This document shows, in pieces, positions 10,441 to 44,121 of a stretch of DNA of 64,000 bases (position 1 is its first letter; each line of letters begins with the position of its first letter). This DNA comes from Hyphomicrobiaceae bacterium. Lineage in GTDB: Bacteria; Pseudomonadota; Alphaproteobacteria; Rhizobiales; Hyphomicrobiaceae. A model generated the notes under the pieces. It saw only the letters and a list, made by a program, of their open reading frames with translations, was not told where the DNA came from and did not search any database. The translations under genes and the position numbers were made by a program. The DNA is taken from contig JALHOW010000010.1 of NCBI GenBank assembly GCA_022842785.1, forward strand, positions 31,224 to 95,223, in the 5' to 3' direction.

Positions 10441-10525
<85 letters not shown>

Positions 10526-25786: not shown

Positions 25787-26857
25787 TCAGTTGCGGCGCG
25801 CGGGGCCGATCTTGTCGAGCGGGCCGAGTGCGCGTTCGAGCATGGGCACGACCTCGCCTGCGAAGCGCTCGATGGATCTCAATGCGGTTGCGAGGGGCGA
25901 CGCGCCAGCCTGGAACTGGAGCAGCATGTGCACGGGCTCCGCCGCGCGGATCAGGCCGGCCATGCGCTCGGCGACGGTCGTCGCGTCACCGACCAGAACC
26001 GAGGCCGAGAAGACGTCGAGCGGCGGCTCGCCCTCGTACGGCTTCTCGATGAGCATGGCCCCGTCGATCAGCTCCTCGCGGCGGCGCAGGCTTTGCGAGA
26101 GCCGGATCTGGTGGCGTAGATTGTCGATGAAGTCGGCCGCTTCGGCCTTGCTGTCGGTGATGCAGACATGGCGCAAGGGCGCGATCGCGGGCTGCCTGGC
26201 CTCGAGCCCCTGCTCGGCGTAGATCCGGCCGATGCTGGCCTTCACCTCGCTGAGCTGGGCGACCGAGGCGTGACGGGGTGTCAGCATTATCGGCCAGCCC
26301 TTGCGGGCGGCGAGGCCCTGCAGCGTCCGGTTATCGCCCGCGATCCAGATATCGGGCAGCTTGCCCGTCGGCCGCGAGGCGATATGCGTTTCGGGAAGTT
26401 CGTAGAAGCGGCCTTTGTGGCTGAATGTTTCGTCCGAGAAAGCCTTCTCCAGAATCTCCACGAACTCGACGAGTTTCGGGGCCGAATCGGCGAGATTTTC
26501 GCCGAATCTCTCGAATTCGTAGGGCTGGTATCCACTCCCGATCCCTAGAATCAGCCGGCCGTGACAAAGCGCATCGACCATCCCGATTTCCGATGCCAGC
26601 CGGACGGGGTTGTAAAGCGGCACCACAACGACCCCGCTTGCGAGCTTGATTCGCGAGGTTTCGCCGGCAAGCCGCGCGACCATCATCAGCGGTGAGGGGC
26701 ATGTGCAATAATTCGAGAAATGGTGCTCGGCGAACCAGGCGATATCGAAACCGGCGGCCTCGGCGGCCTTCACCTGCGCGATCGCCCCGTCATAGAGCGT
26801 GGCCGCAGCTGTTCTGGGCGTGCGATAGCCCATCAGATTGAAGATGCCGAAGTTCAT
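25787..26857 (-). CDS. Luciferase-like (LLM class) flavin-dependent monooxygenase
   Basis: MNFGIF, AEAAGFDIAWFAEHHFSNY, P.LM...LAGETSRIKL, GRLILGIGSGY. Confidence 0.9.
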   Translation of the reverse strand: MNFGIFNLMGYRTPRTAAATLYDGAIAQVKAAEAAGFDIAWFAEHHFSNYCTCPSPLMMVARLAGETSRIKLASGVVVVPLYNPVRLASEIGMVDALCHGRLILGIGSGYQPYEFERFGENLADSAPKLVEFVEILEKAFSDETFSHKGRFYELPETHIASRPTGKLPDIWIAGDNRTLQGLAARKGWPIMLTPRHASVAQLSEVKASIGRIYAEQGLEARQPAIAPLRHVCITDSKAEAADFIDNLRHQIRLSQSLRRREELIDGAMLIEKPYEGEPPLDVFSASVLVGDATTVAERMAGLIRAAEPVHMLLQFQAGASPLATALRSIERFAGEVVPMLERALGPLDKIGPARRN

Positions 26858-27134
26858 GAGCACGCTCCCCGCCGGTTCGTCTGCAGGATGATCCTGCAAC
26901 ATCGGCCTCGGAGGCCGGTTTCCCGGCAGTTTGTCCGAGCTTGGGGAGCAAGGGAACCCCGAGGCTGGCCAGTGGAGCCGCGCTCAGAGGAGGACATACA
27001 TACCAAATTGGCCTATCGGGCCAAGGCGTCACGGAAACTCAGGGCCTAAAAATGCATCGACCGGTGCCGTGATCGAGACGGTACCGGTCGACGGGGACAT
27101 AAGAAACGCCGCGAGCGACTACGGGAAGTCGCTC

Positions 27135-27404
27135 TTAAGCGCGCTTGCGGCGGGCTGCCGGCTTACGGGCGGCGGCCTTCTTCGCGGGGGCGCGACGAAC
27201 CTTCGAGGTGGCGGCCTTGCGGCGGGCGGGGCCAGCGCGCTTCACGGCGGTCTTCTTTACGGCGCGCTTCGCCGGGGCCTTCTTCGCAACGGTCTTCTTC
27301 GCAACGGTCTTCTTCTTGGCGACTTTCTTCTTGGCAACCTTCTTCACGGGCGCCTTCGTCATCGTCGTAGTGGTCGTTGTGGTCTTCTTTGCAATCTTAG
27401 CCAT
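27135..27404 (-). CDS. Histone-H1-like basic protein (89 aa)
   Basis: AGGAG RBS; 26 Lys + 10 Arg, no acidic residues; VAKKK/TVAKK pentapeptide repeats. Confidence 0.8.
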   Translation of the reverse strand: MAKIAKKTTTTTTTMTKAPVKKVAKKKVAKKKTVAKKTVAKKAPAKRAVKKTAVKRAGPARRKAATSKVRRAPAKKAAARKPAARRKRA

Positions 27405-27494
27405 GTTGATATCTCCTATCTCTTCCCGGTAGCAAGTCACTCGCCTGTCAAGACGAATCGTGTCCACTTGCAAGGATGAATGTGAGATTTGGTA

Positions 27495-27510
27495 GTTAAT
27501 GGGAAGTTAA
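27495..27510 (-). promoter_or_regulatory. CtrA box TTAA-N7-TTAAC
   Basis: Minus strand TTAACTTCCCATTAAC, about 90 bp upstream of the H1-like ATG. Confidence 0.75.
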
Positions 27511-27703
27511 TGAATTCAAATCCCGATACTCCGCTGAGATAATCGGAATAACTTTCTCGATCGCTTTCTGCGCAGCGATAATGAAAGTAATGCAATAAAA
27601 TCGGCCATATTCGCTCGCTCGCCGATGTTGCTGGACGGCCTCGAAAATTTCGCGCTAGCATGCGCGTCGGAAAGCGCTTGAACGCGCCGTTGAGGGCAGA
27701 GAA

Positions 27704-28516
27704 GTGATCGAAATCGAGCGAGTCGCGCGAATCATGCGCGAAGTTGCAGCGGAAGAAATCGTGCCGCGTTGGCGCAATCTCGCCGGTGCAGACGTCGTCG
27801 AAAAGACTGGTCCGAGCGACATCGTGACGGTCGCGGATCGCGCAGCGGAGGTCGCGCTCACGCGTCGGCTTGCCGAGTTGATCGCAGGCTCGCGCGTCGT
27901 CGGCGAGGAAGCCGTGCACGCCGATCCGACGGTCCTGCAGCACTTTGCGAGCGGCGATCCCGTGTGGGTGATCGATCCGATCGATGGCACGAGCGCATTC
28001 GCCAAGGGCGAGTCCGGCTTCACGGTGATGGTCGCGCTCGTGCGCGGTGAAGAGCTGCTCGCTGGATGGATTCTCGCGCCCTCTAGTGGTGAACTGCACA
28101 TGGGTGAGCGCGGAAGTGGTGCCTACCGTGTGCGCGACGGCGCCGTCACACGGCTGCCGCGCCCTTCGATTCCGACCATGAACAAGGAGCTGATCGGTCT
28201 CCTCGGCCGCCGGCACATGAGCGACGCGCGTCGCGCGGAACTTAAGGCACGGGCCGGGGCCTTCGCGGCTCTTCAGAATGTTTCCTGCGCGGGCATGGAC
28301 TATCCGCGGCTGCTTTCAGGAAGCGCGCACTTCGCGATCTACAACAAATCCGAACCCTGGGATCATCTGCCGGGCCTCACGCTCGCCAGCGAACAAGGCT
28401 TTGCGTTCTGCAAGCACGACGGCAGCGCCTATCGGCCGGGTGACAACGCCGGCGGTCTCGTCATCGCGCCGAGCGAGGCCGTCGCCGGGGATATCCGACG
28501 GCTGCTGCTCGCCTGA
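27704..28516 (+). CDS. Inositol monophosphatase family protein
   Basis: DIVTVAD, VVGEE, WVIDPIDGT, WDH.PG. Confidence 0.9.
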   Translation: MIEIERVARIMREVAAEEIVPRWRNLAGADVVEKTGPSDIVTVADRAAEVALTRRLAELIAGSRVVGEEAVHADPTVLQHFASGDPVWVIDPIDGTSAFAKGESGFTVMVALVRGEELLAGWILAPSSGELHMGERGSGAYRVRDGAVTRLPRPSIPTMNKELIGLLGRRHMSDARRAELKARAGAFAALQNVSCAGMDYPRLLSGSAHFAIYNKSEPWDHLPGLTLASEQGFAFCKHDGSAYRPGDNAGGLVIAPSEAVAGDIRRLLLA

Positions 28517-35362: not shown

Positions 35363-35543
35363 AGTCATAGTGTTGCTAGTGCGATTCAGATCGAGAAATT
35401 CGCTCACAGGGCAGGGGCGAACGCTGGCGAATTTCTCGATCATCGCACTAGCCGCGACACCGGTATCCGTACCGCGTTGAGCGCATTTTCGTATAAGGCG
35501 TGCGAGCGAAGACCGATCCACCGCTATGAAGGCGGGTGCTGAC

Positions 35544-38500
35544 GTGCAGATCACGCGACTTCGGCTGCTCGGCTTCAAATCGTTCGTGGAGCCGACCGAG
35601 CTTGTCATCGAGAAGGGACTGACCGGCGTTGTCGGGCCGAACGGCTGCGGCAAGTCGAACCTGCTCGAGGCCTTGCGCTGGGTCATGGGCGAGACGTCCT
35701 ACAAGTCCATGCGCGCCTCGACCATGGAGGACGTGATCTTCTCCGGGACGAATGCCCGGCCGGCCAGGAACATGGCCGAGGTCACGATCTCGATCGACAA
35801 CGGCGCGCGCACGGCGCCGGCCGAACTCAACGACGCCGACGTGCTCGAGGTTACGCGCCGCATCGAGCGCGACGCGGGCTCGGCGTATCGTGTGAATGGC
35901 GGCGAAGTCCGTGCGCGCGACATCAAACTGCTGTTCGAGGATGCCTCGACGGGCGCTCGCTCGCCCTCCCTCGTCCGCCAGGGACAGATTGCCGAGATCG
36001 TCAATTCAAAGCCGGAGCAGCGTCGCCGCATCCTGGAGGATGCGGCGGGCATCGCCGGTCTGCACAGCCGTCGCCATGAGGCGGAGCTGCGGCTCAAGGC
36101 AGCCGAGGGCAATCTGGCGCGCGTCAACGATGTGCTCGGTCAACTCGGCAGTCAGATCGAGGCCCTGAAGCGCCAGACCCGGCAGGCACGACGTTATCGC
36201 GAGTTATCGGGCGAGATTCGCAAGGCCGAGGCACTGCTGCTTCATCTTTCGTGGACTGCGGCGCAGAACGAGGTGGTCGCAACGGAGGCCGCGCTCTGGC
36301 AGGGCCTAGGTGCGCTTGCGGCCGCGACCGAGCGCGAAGCTGCGCTCGTCACCGAGGAAGCTGAGCGCGCGTCAGCCATCGAGCCATTACGTGAGGAGGA
36401 AGCGCGTCGGGGCGCGGCGCTCGCCCGCCTGCGCATCGAGCAGGAGAATTTCGAGAAGGAGGCGCGGCGTCTCGCCGAGCGCCAGCGCGAACTCGAAGCG
36501 CGCGCGGAGCAGATGCGGCGCGACATCGAGCGCGAGCAGCAGCAGGTCGCCGAGGCGCGCGCGATCCTCGACAGACTGGGCTCGGAAGCGGAGACGATCA
36601 AGACCGAGGTCGCCGACGGCCAGCAAGCGGAAGAAGAAACCCGCGCGGGTCTCGATGAAGCCGAGGCGGCACTTGGCGAAGCGACGGCCAGGCTCACGGA
36701 GGTCACGGCGCGCGCCATCGAGGCACGCACGCGCCGCCGCGCGCTCGAGAGTACGCACGCCGAGCGGCAGGGCCATGTGAAGCGCATCGAAAGCCAGCTC
36801 GCCTCTTTCGCGACACAGGCGCGGGAGATCGCGGCGCGCGCGCCCGATGCCGAGCGCCTTCAGCAACTCTCCGAGGCGGGTCAACGCCTCATGCGTGAGT
36901 TGGAGTTCGTCGATGAGCAAGCGCTGGCCGCCGAGGCGCGCGCCGCCGAGATCGCCATCGAGGCGCGGGCGCGCGAGGAGGCCAGTCAGGCTGCGCTGCT
37001 GACCTCTGGCCAGCTTCGCACGGAAGTCGAGACGCTTGCCAAGCTGCTGTTGCCGGTGCGCGATGACGGCCTGCCGCCGATGATCGACGAGCTGCGCGTC
37101 CAGCCCGGTTATGAGCGCGCGCTCGGTGCAGCCCTCGGCGATGATCTCGATGCGCCTGTTGCTGAAGAGGCGGATGTCTATTGGCGCCACGTCGGACGCG
37201 CCGCGGATGATCCGCCGCTGCCCGTCGGCGTGCACCCGCTGGCTCACGAGGTGGATGCGCCGCCGGAGCTTGCGCGGCGGCTGGCGCAGATCGGCGTCGT
37301 CGTGCGTGAGGATGGGCGGCTCCTGCAGCCCTATCTGCGCCCCGGCCAACGGCTCGTGTCGCCCGAGGGCGATCTCTGGCGCTGGGATGGTTTTACGGTC
37401 GCGGCCACTGCGCCGACGGCTGCTGCTGTGCGGCTTGCCGAGCGCAATCGGCTGGGCGAGCTCGAAGTGCTCGAGGATGCGGCGCGGCGCGAGGCGGAGG
37501 ATCTCACTTCGGCGACGCGCACAGCGCGCGAGATGCACCGGGTCGCGGAGAGCGAGGAGCGCCGCCTGCGCCAGTCCTGGCGCGAAACCCAGGCCGAACT
37601 CGCCCGCACGCGCGAAAAGCTCACGGTGATCGAGCGACAGGCACGCGAGACCGAGCAGCGGCTGGCGGCCGTCGCCGAGAATCGCTCCGCCGCCGAAGCG
37701 GCACTCGTCGAGGCGAAGGAGCGACTGGCCGAAATCGAGACAGCCATTGATGCCCTCGACAATGACGATGCGCTCGAAGCCGAGGTCGCAGCAGTCGAGA
37801 GAGAAACGGGCAAGCATCGCAGCACGGTCGGAGAAATTCGCCAGGTGCTTTCGCGCATCGAGCGCGACGTGCACGTGCGCAGCGAGCGGCTCAATGCCGT
37901 CGAGGTCGAGCGCACGCGTTGGCAAGCACGCTGCGAGGATGCAGGTGGTCACGTCGCGACGCTGAGCGCGCGTATGGGAGAGACCGAGGAAGAGCTTGCC
38001 GATATGGCCGAGCTTCCGGCCGAAATCGAAGCACAGCGCATCAAGCTGCACGACCAGATGCAGGCGGCCGAGACGGCGCGCAGTGAGGCGTCGGATCGCC
38101 TTGCGGAATCCCAGTCCGGGCACCGCGAGAGCCAGCAGGCGCTCAAGTCTGCGCAGGCGGCGGTGAGCGATCAGCGTGAGCAGCGCGCGCGCGCCGAAGC
38201 CAAGCTCGAATCTGCGCGCCAGAAGCGATCCGACGAGGGGCGGCGGATCCGCGAGACCATGGACTGCGCGCCCGAAGCCTGCCTCGCGCTGGCCGAGGTG
38301 GAGCCCAATGCGACCCTGCCGGCGCTCGCCGACGTGGATCGATCGCTGCAGCGCCTCAAGGCCGATCGCGAGCGCCTCGGCGGCGTCAATCTTGCGGCCG
38401 ATGACGAGCTTCAAAAGATGAACGAGCAGTTCGCGACAATGGATCTCGAGCGGCTCGACGTCGAGCAGGCGATCAACAAGCTGCGCGGCGCCATCGGTCA

Positions 38501-39032
38501 GCTCAATCGCGAGGCGAAGAAGCGCCTCGGCGAGGCGTTCGATCTCGTGAACGGCCACTTCCAGCGCTTGTTCGGCACGCTGTTCGGCGGCGGCGAGGCG
38601 CGGTTGGAGATGATCGAAAGCGAGGAGGACCCGCTCGAAGGCGGCCTCGAAATCATCGCCCGTCCACCGGGCAAGAAGCCCGCGACGCTATCGCTGCTGT
38701 CCGGCGGCGAGCAGACGCTGACCGCGCTCTCGCTGATCTTCGCAGTGTTCCTGACGAATCCCTCGCCGATCTGCGTGCTCGACGAGGTGGACGCACCGCT
38801 CGACGATGCCAATGTCGATCGCTTCTGCTCGATGATGGAACACATGGCGGCGGACACCGAAACGCGCTTCCTCGTCATCACGCACCATCCGATGACCATG
38901 GCGCGCATGGATCGGCTGTTCGGTGTGACCATGGCCGAGCGCGGCGTCTCGCAGCTCGTCTCCGTCGATCTCGCGACCGCTGAGCGGATCATCGAAAACG
39001 GTGGCGAAGACGCTCAGGCCGGCGCCGCCTGA
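35544..39032 (+). CDS. smc: Chromosome segregation protein SMC
   Basis: GFKSF, GPNGCGKSN, long coiled coils with hinge, LLSGGEQ, LDEVDAPLD, ITH. Confidence 0.97.
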   Translation: MQITRLRLLGFKSFVEPTELVIEKGLTGVVGPNGCGKSNLLEALRWVMGETSYKSMRASTMEDVIFSGTNARPARNMAEVTISIDNGARTAPAELNDADVLEVTRRIERDAGSAYRVNGGEVRARDIKLLFEDASTGARSPSLVRQGQIAEIVNSKPEQRRRILEDAAGIAGLHSRRHEAELRLKAAEGNLARVNDVLGQLGSQIEALKRQTRQARRYRELSGEIRKAEALLLHLSWTAAQNEVVATEAALWQGLGALAAATEREAALVTEEAERASAIEPLREEEARRGAALARLRIEQENFEKEARRLAERQRELEARAEQMRRDIEREQQQVAEARAILDRLGSEAETIKTEVADGQQAEEETRAGLDEAEAALGEATARLTEVTARAIEARTRRRALESTHAERQGHVKRIESQLASFATQAREIAARAPDAERLQQLSEAGQRLMRELEFVDEQALAAEARAAEIAIEARAREEASQAALLTSGQLRTEVETLAKLLLPVRDDGLPPMIDELRVQPGYERALGAALGDDLDAPVAEEADVYWRHVGRAADDPPLPVGVHPLAHEVDAPPELARRLAQIGVVVREDGRLLQPYLRPGQRLVSPEGDLWRWDGFTVAATAPTAAAVRLAERNRLGELEVLEDAARREAEDLTSATRTAREMHRVAESEERRLRQSWRETQAELARTREKLTVIERQARETEQRLAAVAENRSAAEAALVEAKERLAEIETAIDALDNDDALEAEVAAVERETGKHRSTVGEIRQVLSRIERDVHVRSERLNAVEVERTRWQARCEDAGGHVATLSARMGETEEELADMAELPAEIEAQRIKLHDQMQAAETARSEASDRLAESQSGHRESQQALKSAQAAVSDQREQRARAEAKLESARQKRSDEGRRIRETMDCAPEACLALAEVEPNATLPALADVDRSLQRLKADRERLGGVNLAADDELQKMNEQFATMDLERLDVEQAINKLRGAIGQLNREAKKRLGEAFDLVNGHFQRLFGTLFGGGEARLEMIESEEDPLEGGLEIIARPPGKKPATLSLLSGGEQTLTALSLIFAVFLTNPSPICVLDEVDAPLDDANVDRFCSMMEHMAADTETRFLVITHHPMTMARMDRLFGVTMAERGVSQLVSVDLATAERIIENGGEDAQAGAA

Positions 39033-41637: not shown

Positions 41638-44121
<2,484 letters not shown>

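Follow-up and report, generated by a model that had tools for sequence, protein, structure and literature searches.

The DNA analysed here is a 64,000-nt stretch of a Hyphomicrobiaceae genome (contig JALHOW010000010.1), referred to below as the window. On its minus strand, between positions 27135 and 27510, lie a short gene encoding an 89-aa polycationic, low-complexity protein (the basic gene) and, upstream of it, an exact match to the full binding motif of CtrA, the cell-cycle master regulator of the Alphaproteobacteria. The original prediction, drawn from the sequence alone, had put this pair forward as a histone-H1-like nucleoid condenser under cell-cycle control. The CtrA-type box is located in a 299-bp divergent spacer that the basic gene shares with an IMPase-family gene (27704-28516, plus strand), and the G+C content of this spacer is 45-49%, as against ~66%. 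On the longer orthologous contigs the gene order is CoA-transferase III, lactamase_B_3, IMPase-family gene (divergent), basic gene, luciferase-like monooxygenase and amidase.

The product of the basic gene is MAKIAKKTTTTTTTMTKAPVKKVAKKKVAKKKTVAKKTVAKKAPAKRAVKKTAVKRAGPARRKAATSKVRRAPAKKAAARKPAARRKRA, which opens with MAKIAKKTTTTTTTMTKAPVKK and closes with RRKRA. Its translation and composition confirmed the features initially ascribed to it, namely a length of 89 residues, 36 lysines and arginines (40%), a complete lack of aspartate and glutamate, and pentapeptide repeats. The protein comprises 26 lysines, 10 arginines, 23 alanines and 12 threonines, is devoid of aromatic residues, cysteine, histidine, asparagine, glutamine and leucine, and presents a mass of 9.6 kDa and a computed isoelectric point of ~12, the upper limit of the calculator. 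The lysines and arginines show a five-residue periodicity, for which the autocorrelation reaches z = 4.1 at lag 5 and z = 2.3 at lag 10 relative to shuffled sequences; basic residues come in pairs at this interval, in repeat units of the type KKxxA/KKTVA. AlphaFold2 modelling returned a predicted template modelling score (pTM) of 0.14, with nearly all of the chain in coil and no folded segment, and the protein is predicted to be fully disordered, without a fold.

The comparative analysis encompassed 13 distinct orthologous loci: the window, L002, L006, L081-L083, L085, L086 and L089-L093. The reading frame is intact in all of them, with protein lengths of 73, 75, 79, 81, 83 and 89 aa. All the indels observed in the alignment are whole codons, placed in a threonine run and in the K-K-x-x-x repeats, and the latter region is the source of the length variation among orthologues. 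Variable sites at codon positions 1, 2 and 3 number 3/1/15 and 2/2/12 (indel-free C-terminal third), and this concentration at third positions indicates purifying selection on the protein. The 89-aa open reading frame (ORF) is a real gene. The threonine run, with seven codons at 27364-27384 (a 9-nt repeat, GTCGTAGTG, in 2.3 copies), is expanded in the window, the orthologues having at most four threonine codons. In L002, the orthologue from a Hyphomicrobium metagenome-assembled genome (MAG), positions 1895-1994 within the repeat region are 100 Ns, corresponding to masked or unassembled low-complexity sequence.

The TTAA-N7-TTAAC reported by the original prediction at ~90 bp upstream of the gene, and in its orientation, is present, and extends from 106 nt (5' end) to 91 nt (3' end) upstream of the ATG. 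No other TTAA-N7-TTAA(C) occurs in the window (0.00 and 0.05 instances expected from dinucleotide shuffles), and a scan of the window allowing one mismatch identified no second CtrA-type site. The motif is identical to the ChIP-seq consensus given for the stalked, budding bacterium Hyphomonas neptunium (PMC7200025). All ten columns of the two TTAAC half-sites are invariant in the 13 loci, and three of the six columns between them vary. Upstream of the box, just 40 of 193 spacer columns (21%) show no variation, and four loci have a pairwise identity of no more than 0.49-0.55 with the window. Conservation of the box in orthologues, which had been set as a check on the initial proposal, was hence observed within a fast-evolving spacer, and the combination of invariant half-sites with a variable middle is the pattern that would be expected for protein contact.

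Downstream of the box, the 13 loci share a -10-like hexamer (CAnATT) followed by six variable positions and by an invariant TGCAAG that opens the leader. The box and the hexamer are separated by 10 nt in the window and by 11 nt in the other 12 loci. Counted back from the G of GCAAG (G27471), the motif begins 39 nt upstream in the window and 40 nt upstream in the other 12 loci, so that both distances are constant within 1 nt. An ordinary -35 element is missing from this promoter, and the full CtrA-type site stands in its place. In Caulobacter, full CtrA motifs have their 5' base near -35 in CtrA-activated promoters, and at -39 in ctrA P2 (PMC4287350), and most CtrA-activated promoters carry one site at -35 (PMC11264516). 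The position of the box, ~39-40 nt upstream of a conserved block in which RNA 5' ends cluster, would match the geometry of CtrA-activated Caulobacter promoters (PMC4287350). The anatomy of the promoter hence appears to be of the CtrA-activated type, with the box replacing the -35 element and CACATT as a putative -10 element. A sigma-54 promoter, suggested by TTGCA in the conserved block, was rejected upon reading the sequence, given that no GG is found 10 nt upstream, and no SciP-type GCGNC motif was seen by eye 60-90 nt upstream of the start.

Transcription was assessed on assembled contigs of public metatranscriptomes, rather than on raw reads, and the ends of these contigs scatter. A 340-nt contig (X28, depth 22) spans the whole message of an orthologue, from ~27494 to 27098, ending just past the terminator. 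The 3' boundaries of the RNA contigs fall at 27098, 27101 and 27102, and the terminator hairpin is followed by a UUUCUU tract. Since the contigs end just after the terminator hairpin, the basic gene is monocistronic, with a message of ~370 nt. Its depth reaches 22-35 in X28, X33 and X26 (X26 and X33 being the same sample), whereas the IMPase and monooxygenase genes of the same strain are uncovered, even at 80-88% likeness, indicating that the message of the basic gene is far more abundant than those of its neighbours.

On the 5' side, RNA contigs end at 27475 (X33, depth 31), 27476 (X39), 27477 (X45) and 27481 (X35); the X45 contig is of read length (151 nt), with a depth of 6. Furthermore, a contig in X40 presents an opposite-strand joint, from +27381..27431 to -27471..27382 with six letters shared, and this joint (27431|27471) falls exactly at the stem formed by GCAAGU (27471-27466) and ACUUGC (27437-27432). 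A joint at the stem points to snap-back of the first-strand cDNA, and hence to an RNA 5' end at or a few bases from 27471. A few additional contig ends lie inside the leader (27444-27461), and some of them abut sequencing adapter. Our reading of these data is that the main 5' end maps to 27471-27477, and that there is in addition a minor upstream start or DNA carry-over. The features of the locus are compiled in Table 1.

Table 1. Features of the basic gene and its promoter region, in window coordinates.
Feature	Position	Strand	Basis or remarks
Coding sequence, 89-aa polycationic low-complexity protein	27135..27404 (stop included)	-	ATG 27404; TAA 27137-27135
Tandem 15/18/33-nt DNA repeats encoding K-K-x-x-x pentamers	27276-27345	-	Tandem Repeats Finder (TRF)
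Shine-Dalgarno sequence AGGAGA	27412..27417	-	7 nt before ATG; invariant in the 13 orthologous loci
Inferred 5' untranslated region, ~67 nt	27405..27471	-	46/69 columns invariant over 27405-27473; RNA contig ends
Predicted 5' hairpin, outer stem GCAAGU/ACUUGC, inner stem UUCGUC/GRCGAG	27432..27471	-	RNAalifold; minimum free energy (MFE) fold
GANTC (GAATC), CcrM-type methylation motif	27455..27459	.	~+13 to +17 of the inferred transcript, inside the 5' hairpin
Putative -10-like hexamer CACATT (CAnATT)	27479..27484	-	C, A, A, T, T invariant in the 13 loci
Full CtrA-type box TTAACTTCCCATTAAC, TTAAC-N6-TTAAC (= TTAA-N7-TTAAC)	27510..27495	- (gene's orientation)	Exact match
Candidate -10 GAGTAT of a possible second, upstream promoter	27526..27531	-	Speculative; AGTAT kept in 10/13 loci; no good -35
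Intrinsic terminator: 8-bp hairpin (27113-27134) directly after the stop, then GCGGCGUUUCUU	27098..27134	-	-17.5 kcal/mol, z = -3.0
Second, back-up terminator-like hairpin and T run	27057..27076	-	Sequence conserved in L006

A stable, abundant message would be expected to have features such as the hairpin predicted at the start of the leader and the terminator immediately after the stop codon. Rfam searches with the leader and the spacer returned nothing, either at the gathering threshold or at E <= 1. The GANTC site that had been noted at 27455 is indeed present as GAATC, and is kept in 12 of the 13 loci, being lost in L086. One such site is in itself unremarkable. It lies neither between the -35 and -10 elements nor just upstream of the start, the placements expected in a CcrM/GcrA methylation-sensitive promoter under the positional rule for methylation-sensitive GANTC sites in Caulobacter (PMC4287350).

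The claim that short genes of this kind are often missed by annotation held only in part. Relatives of the basic gene are usually called, but with a misplaced start and an N-terminus extended through the promoter. Orthologues in public data (P0001-P0008) are called as 126-148-aa 'hypothetical protein' entries with starts far upstream. Called starts are 50-70 codons too early and the promoter is translated (P0001-P0008; L083 2501-2935; L085 2501-2938; others), to the point that the string FEFINFPLTTKS in the called products is the translated CtrA box. The same too-early start is seen in the NCBI annotation of a MAG (VNZ50_09435, hypothetical protein). A longer ORF, either the 112-aa one starting at TTG 27473 or the called 126-148-aa versions, was rejected: the N-terminal extension is out of frame in the window and single-base indels occur among the orthologous spacers, so the extension is an artefact. 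For the 89-aa protein of the window, starting at ATG 27404, no exact record was found.

Searches against family models returned HC2 (PF07382) as the only Pfam match of the 89-aa protein, with 25.6 bits for a cut-off of 40 and no other hit at E <= 0.1. In NCBIfam, the Burkholderia-type H1-like model NF038053 scored 20.2 bits (cut-off 80) and the Hc2 model NF038052 17.5 bits (cut-off 135). The designation 'histone-H1-like' in the original prediction is apt as regards composition, pentamers and the lack of acidic residues, but all cut-offs of the H1-like family models were missed, and membership of a named family cannot be demonstrated for the protein. An exhaustive HMMER search returned two clusters among 1.84 billion representatives, both of them orthologues, and a frameshifted fragment was all that a further word-indexed search with an alignment contributed. 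Of 600 pattern matches in a metagenome scan, no more than 2 loci were confirmed, and in the more distant Hyphomicrobiales MAGs L003-L005 (IMPase 54-57% identical) no syntenic basic gene was present within 4 kb. The closest genome-collection contigs belong to MAGs labelled Hyphomicrobium sp., Hyphomicrobiales, Alphaproteobacteria or Pseudomonadota (IMPase 54-81% identical), and one protein derives from a Hyphomicrobiaceae MAG; these Hyphomicrobium and Hyphomicrobiaceae labels make the budding, dimorphic host envisaged at the outset plausible. The sequence is present in DNA and RNA runs of biofilter, drinking-water, activated-sludge, soil and sediment samples. As delineated by these searches, the family does not extend beyond a small Hyphomicrobiaceae clade that is apparently uncultured. 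Separately, unrelated KKA-repeat contigs from sludge and sediment metatranscriptomes match 27267-27345 over 30-45 nt, with depths of up to ~1955 in X33, and other lysine-rich repeat proteins seem to be highly expressed in these communities.

In its architecture, the protein is of the type of the H1-like proteins Hc2 and BpH1, which are made of consecutive pentamers with two basic residues plus A/V/T/P, lack acidic residues and present repeat-number polymorphism (PMC2848022). With Hc2 (HctB) it shares the lysine-rich, two-basic pentamers with A/V/T/P, the absence of acidic residues, a length polymorphism by repeat number that keeps the frame, and the lack of a globular domain. Hc2 is, however, 165-237 aa long, compared with 73-89 aa here (about half), contains a 36-residue super-repeat that is missing from the 89-aa protein, which also falls below the PF07382 and NF038052 cut-offs, and is controlled by the chlamydial late-gene machinery, in contrast with the proposed CtrA control in a free-living alphaproteobacterium. 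Expression of Hc1 or Hc2 in E. coli leads to condensation of the nucleoid; in the chlamydial cycle both are late products, and Hc2 binds RNA and represses translation (PMC2848022). BpH1 and the NF038053 family have in common with the basic gene product the consecutive lysine-rich pentamers, the size variation among strains and their occurrence in free-living or host-associated proteobacteria. BpH1 differs in its length of 182-206 aa, in the NF038053 cut-off, which is not reached here, and in having no known link to a cell-cycle regulator; it is expressed in exponential growth and is dispensable (PMC2848022).

Hc1 (HctA) is likewise a small, basic DNA-condensing protein with developmental timing. 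Its message is tightly controlled via its leader by the small RNA (sRNA) IhtA (PMC8343073), and by analogy the unusually conserved leader of the basic gene may be regarded as a point of likeness. In contrast with Hc1, no sRNA partner is known for the basic gene and Rfam gave no match, and the structured N-terminal dimerisation domain of Hc1 (PMC2848022) is missing here, as judged from Pfam and AlphaFold2. The winged-helix domain of the eukaryotic linker histones H1/H5 is also missing (no Pfam hit, and the low pTM reported above), and only the composition of their C-terminal tail is common to both. The Pseudomonas proteins AlgP and PhaF carry disordered K/A/P-rich tails of H1-like composition, which bind DNA and polyphosphate (polyP) and tether granules to the nucleoid (PMC11894788). 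These tails organise polyP and polyhydroxyalkanoate (PHA) granules. AlgP and PhaF also have a structured domain at the N-terminus, either a coiled coil or a phasin domain, together with numerous KPAA repeats, whereas the 89-aa protein amounts to the tail alone. As for the promoter, CtrA-activated ones of Caulobacter (for example ctrA P2, fliQ and ccrM) and the CtrA regulon of H. neptunium likewise present a single full site and a GANTC close by. The 5' base of their site lies ~35-39 nt upstream of the start, in place of the -35 element, an arrangement that the basic gene would share. They differ in that no nucleoid-coating protein is included among the CtrA targets named in the accessible parts of the respective reports, and in that the start is deduced here from metatranscriptome contigs of an uncultured Hyphomicrobiaceae lineage.

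Taken together, these data lead us to propose a mechanism in which phosphorylated CtrA (CtrA~P) would bind the box, recruit RNA polymerase and activate a promoter starting at ~27471. The basic gene would be switched on where CtrA~P is high, namely in swarmer cells and in the late predivisional or bud compartment. Its stable, abundant, monocistronic message would give rise to a polycation that coats the daughter nucleoid in the bud or swarmer, compacting it and silencing its activity. With 40% lysine and arginine, no acidic residues and no fold, such a protein can act only by coating polyanions. By analogy with the Hc2/BpH1 type its most likely target is chromosomal DNA, with RNA and polyP as alternatives. 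The gene, the selection on its coding sequence, its transcription, the 3' end of its mRNA and the conservation and placement of the box are observed, whereas CtrA binding, the sign of control, the timing of expression and the polyanion bound are inferred. The box is quite probably a functional CtrA site, and the balance of the evidence leans towards net activation by CtrA at this site. The case for DNA coating or compaction as the main role of the protein is evenly poised, and the looser combined statement, a CtrA-activated polycation that coats nucleic acids, has a plausibility slightly short of even. The proposal in its complete form, in which a lineage-specific, domain-less 'linker-histone tail' protein is switched on by CtrA~P in the bud and compacts or silences the daughter chromosome of a hyphal budding bacterium, should be considered unlikely to be right in every particular.

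Several observations weigh against this proposal or restrict it. RNA contig ends are also found further upstream, at 27494 (X28), 27514 (X26, depth 35), 27519 (X29) and 27520 (X34), and contigs in X34, X36, X37, X42, X30, X47 and X51 run far upstream; X36 also covers the IMPase gene evenly and looks like DNA. As RNA contigs cross the box, either some transcripts include it or those libraries contain DNA, and activation is accordingly no more than the likelier sign of CtrA control. Several contig ends lie in the hexamer immediately preceding 27472, which differs from strain to strain and can break assemblies. CACATT is a weak match to the -10 consensus, and the window is one base short, relative to the 12 other loci, at 27485/27486, between the box and the -10-like element. 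The predicted 5' hairpin is weakly supported, with one compensatory pair and z = -0.75 (RNAalifold and MFE folding), and the GANTC, lying downstream of the inferred start and being lost in one orthologue, constitutes weak evidence for methylation control. Given that all the family model scores fall below their cut-offs, the protein is an analogue of H1-like proteins by composition and not a homologue, and the restriction of the family to one small clade implies that it cannot represent a general alphaproteobacterial mechanism. The CtrA pathway is described as conserved in the Alphaproteobacteria (PMC7200025); ctrA itself is not in the 64-kb window, and the host ctrA was not looked for beyond it.

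The upstream RNA ends raise the rather improbable alternative that CtrA acts mainly as a repressor, with a main promoter upstream of the box that uses the -10 GAGTAT (27531-27526) and starts at ~27517-27520, or that two tandem promoters are switched by one site, as in Caulobacter ctrA P2/P3. The box would then be located at ~+8 to +25, CtrA~P would block transcription, and the protein would be made in stalked, replicating cells, much as BpH1 is in growing cells. The ends at 27514, 27519, 27520 and 27494 are in agreement with such an arrangement, as is the conserved AGTAT, at the right distance from the 27514-27520 ends. In addition, one full Caulobacter site has been proposed to activate one promoter and repress another (PMC4287350), and BpH1 offers a precedent for expression in exponential growth (PMC2848022). 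Yet the upstream promoter has no recognisable -35, GAGTAT is changed to GGAATG in three loci, the 27514-27520 ends fall at the margin of a conserved block, a place at which assemblies break, and several of the box-crossing contigs are DNA-like, coming from libraries that cover the neighbours evenly. The snap-back joint and four contig ends point instead to 27471-27481, and full motifs in Caulobacter belong overwhelmingly to the activating class (PMC4287350). A related question is whether the box serves the divergent IMPase gene, alone or as well, in which case its conservation would say nothing specific about the basic gene. The box lies within the shared spacer, 5 bp from a sigma-70-like TTCAAA-17-GATAAT on the plus strand (27515-27543), and its distance to the IMPase start codon is exactly 193 nt in 10 of the 13 loci, despite ~50% sequence divergence. 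In the other three loci an 11-12-nt insertion (GAATATGGAGA-like), about one helical turn, lengthens this distance to 204-205 nt, whereas towards the basic gene the spacing never differs by more than 1 nt. Moreover, conservation of the promoter-like sequence on the plus strand does not extend to the four most distant loci (L006, L081, L002 and L086), the box is 194-209 nt away from the IMPase start codon but 39-40 nt from the leader of the basic gene, and three RNA runs cover the basic gene well and the IMPase gene not at all. The TTAAC direct repeat is oriented towards the basic gene, and this direction, together with the -10-like element and a leader at promoter distance, leads us to assign the box to it. 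The box thus appears to serve the basic gene and may have an added effect on the IMPase gene; that the latter accounts for its conservation has little to recommend it.

A similarly small probability is attached to TTAAC-N6-TTAAC being the site of another regulator, or an A+T-rich promoter element resembling the CtrA consensus. The low G+C content of the spacer raises the local chance of TTAA, and several other spacer blocks are equally conserved. This explanation is at odds with an exact match to 9-10 consensus bases at the right spacing, the sole one in 64 kb, and with half-sites that stay invariant as the bases between them vary. Among alphaproteobacterial regulators, none but CtrA is known to us to have such a direct repeat as its motif. 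The same regulation could, lastly, act on a protein whose main partner is not the chromosome but polyP granules, RNA or ribosomes, with a role in granule partitioning or translation silencing in the bud or swarmer. Hyphomicrobia store polyP and polyhydroxybutyrate, and a bare polycation carries no specificity domain. The K/A/P-rich AlgP tail binds and spaces polyP granules (PMC11894788), and RNA binding and translation repression are documented for Hc2 (PMC2848022). We regard such a partner as unlikely: the structured N-terminal domains of AlgP and PhaF are missing from the 89-aa protein, DNA is the most abundant accessible polyanion, and no granule gene is found in the conserved neighbourhood. 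Activation by CtrA of a protein that would coat the chromosome is accordingly the reading that we retain.

Other features of the window were recorded alongside this analysis. Within the divergent spacer, the blocks at 27584-27599, 27623-27638 and 27645-27660 reach the same level of conservation as the box (mean column identity of 0.88-0.92 across the 13 loci); one conserved block reads AAAGTAATGCAATAAA on the plus strand, and these blocks may correspond to the IMPase promoter or leader, or to other operator sites. GANTC is depleted 3.7-fold in the window, with 93 sites for 349 +/- 17 in dinucleotide shuffles, which fits a CcrM-carrying genome; such depletion is typical of alphaproteobacteria that carry CcrM. 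A cluster of five GANTC sites occupies 200 bp (26452-26652) of the luciferase-like monooxygenase gene, in its 5' half, compared with one site per ~690 bp on average over the window. Genes encoding the SMC condensin (35526-39032, plus strand) and GyrB (gyrB, 41638-44094, minus strand) are located 8-14 kb from the H1-like gene, and the window scan, allowing one mismatch, detected no CtrA-type box near either of them. The sole Rfam match at the gathering threshold in the window is a tRNA gene (10441-10522, plus strand).

Much of the background to the proposed mechanism is already established. Developmentally timed H1-like condensers are known in Chlamydia, with Hq1 as a further case in Coxiella, and CtrA promoters of this design have been described. 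A difference between the nucleoids of swarmer and stalked cells was reportedly noted by Evinger and Agabian in 1977, a work that appears in the reference list of PMC7200025. PMC1175088 likewise reports that the physical state of the nucleoid differs between swarmer and stalked cells of dimorphic alphaproteobacteria, and the locus offers a candidate bearing on this old question. We know of no CtrA-controlled compaction factor, and no publication that connects H1-like proteins with CtrA emerged from our literature searches. What the present locus would add is a link between an H1-like protein and CtrA in an alphaproteobacterium, and a lineage-restricted, very short version of the H1-like type.

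The reach of the finding is limited to a small, apparently uncultured Hyphomicrobiaceae clade, and within it the locus is a compact candidate, consisting of one short gene and one perfect operator, with a leader and a terminator that define a small expression cassette. It also illustrates that polycationic H1-like proteins arise independently in narrow lineages. Since homology searches barely see such proteins and gene callers misplace their starts, they are probably under-counted. If the proposed mechanism is correct, it would for the first time tie the cell-cycle master regulator of the Alphaproteobacteria, at the molecular level, to global compaction of the nucleoid, and it would have arisen independently of the equivalent use of Hc1/Hc2 in Chlamydia and of Hq1 in Coxiella. 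In a hyphal budding bacterium, compaction could ease the passage of the chromosome through the narrow hypha, or its settling on the far side, and it could enforce the non-replicating state of the swarmer cell.

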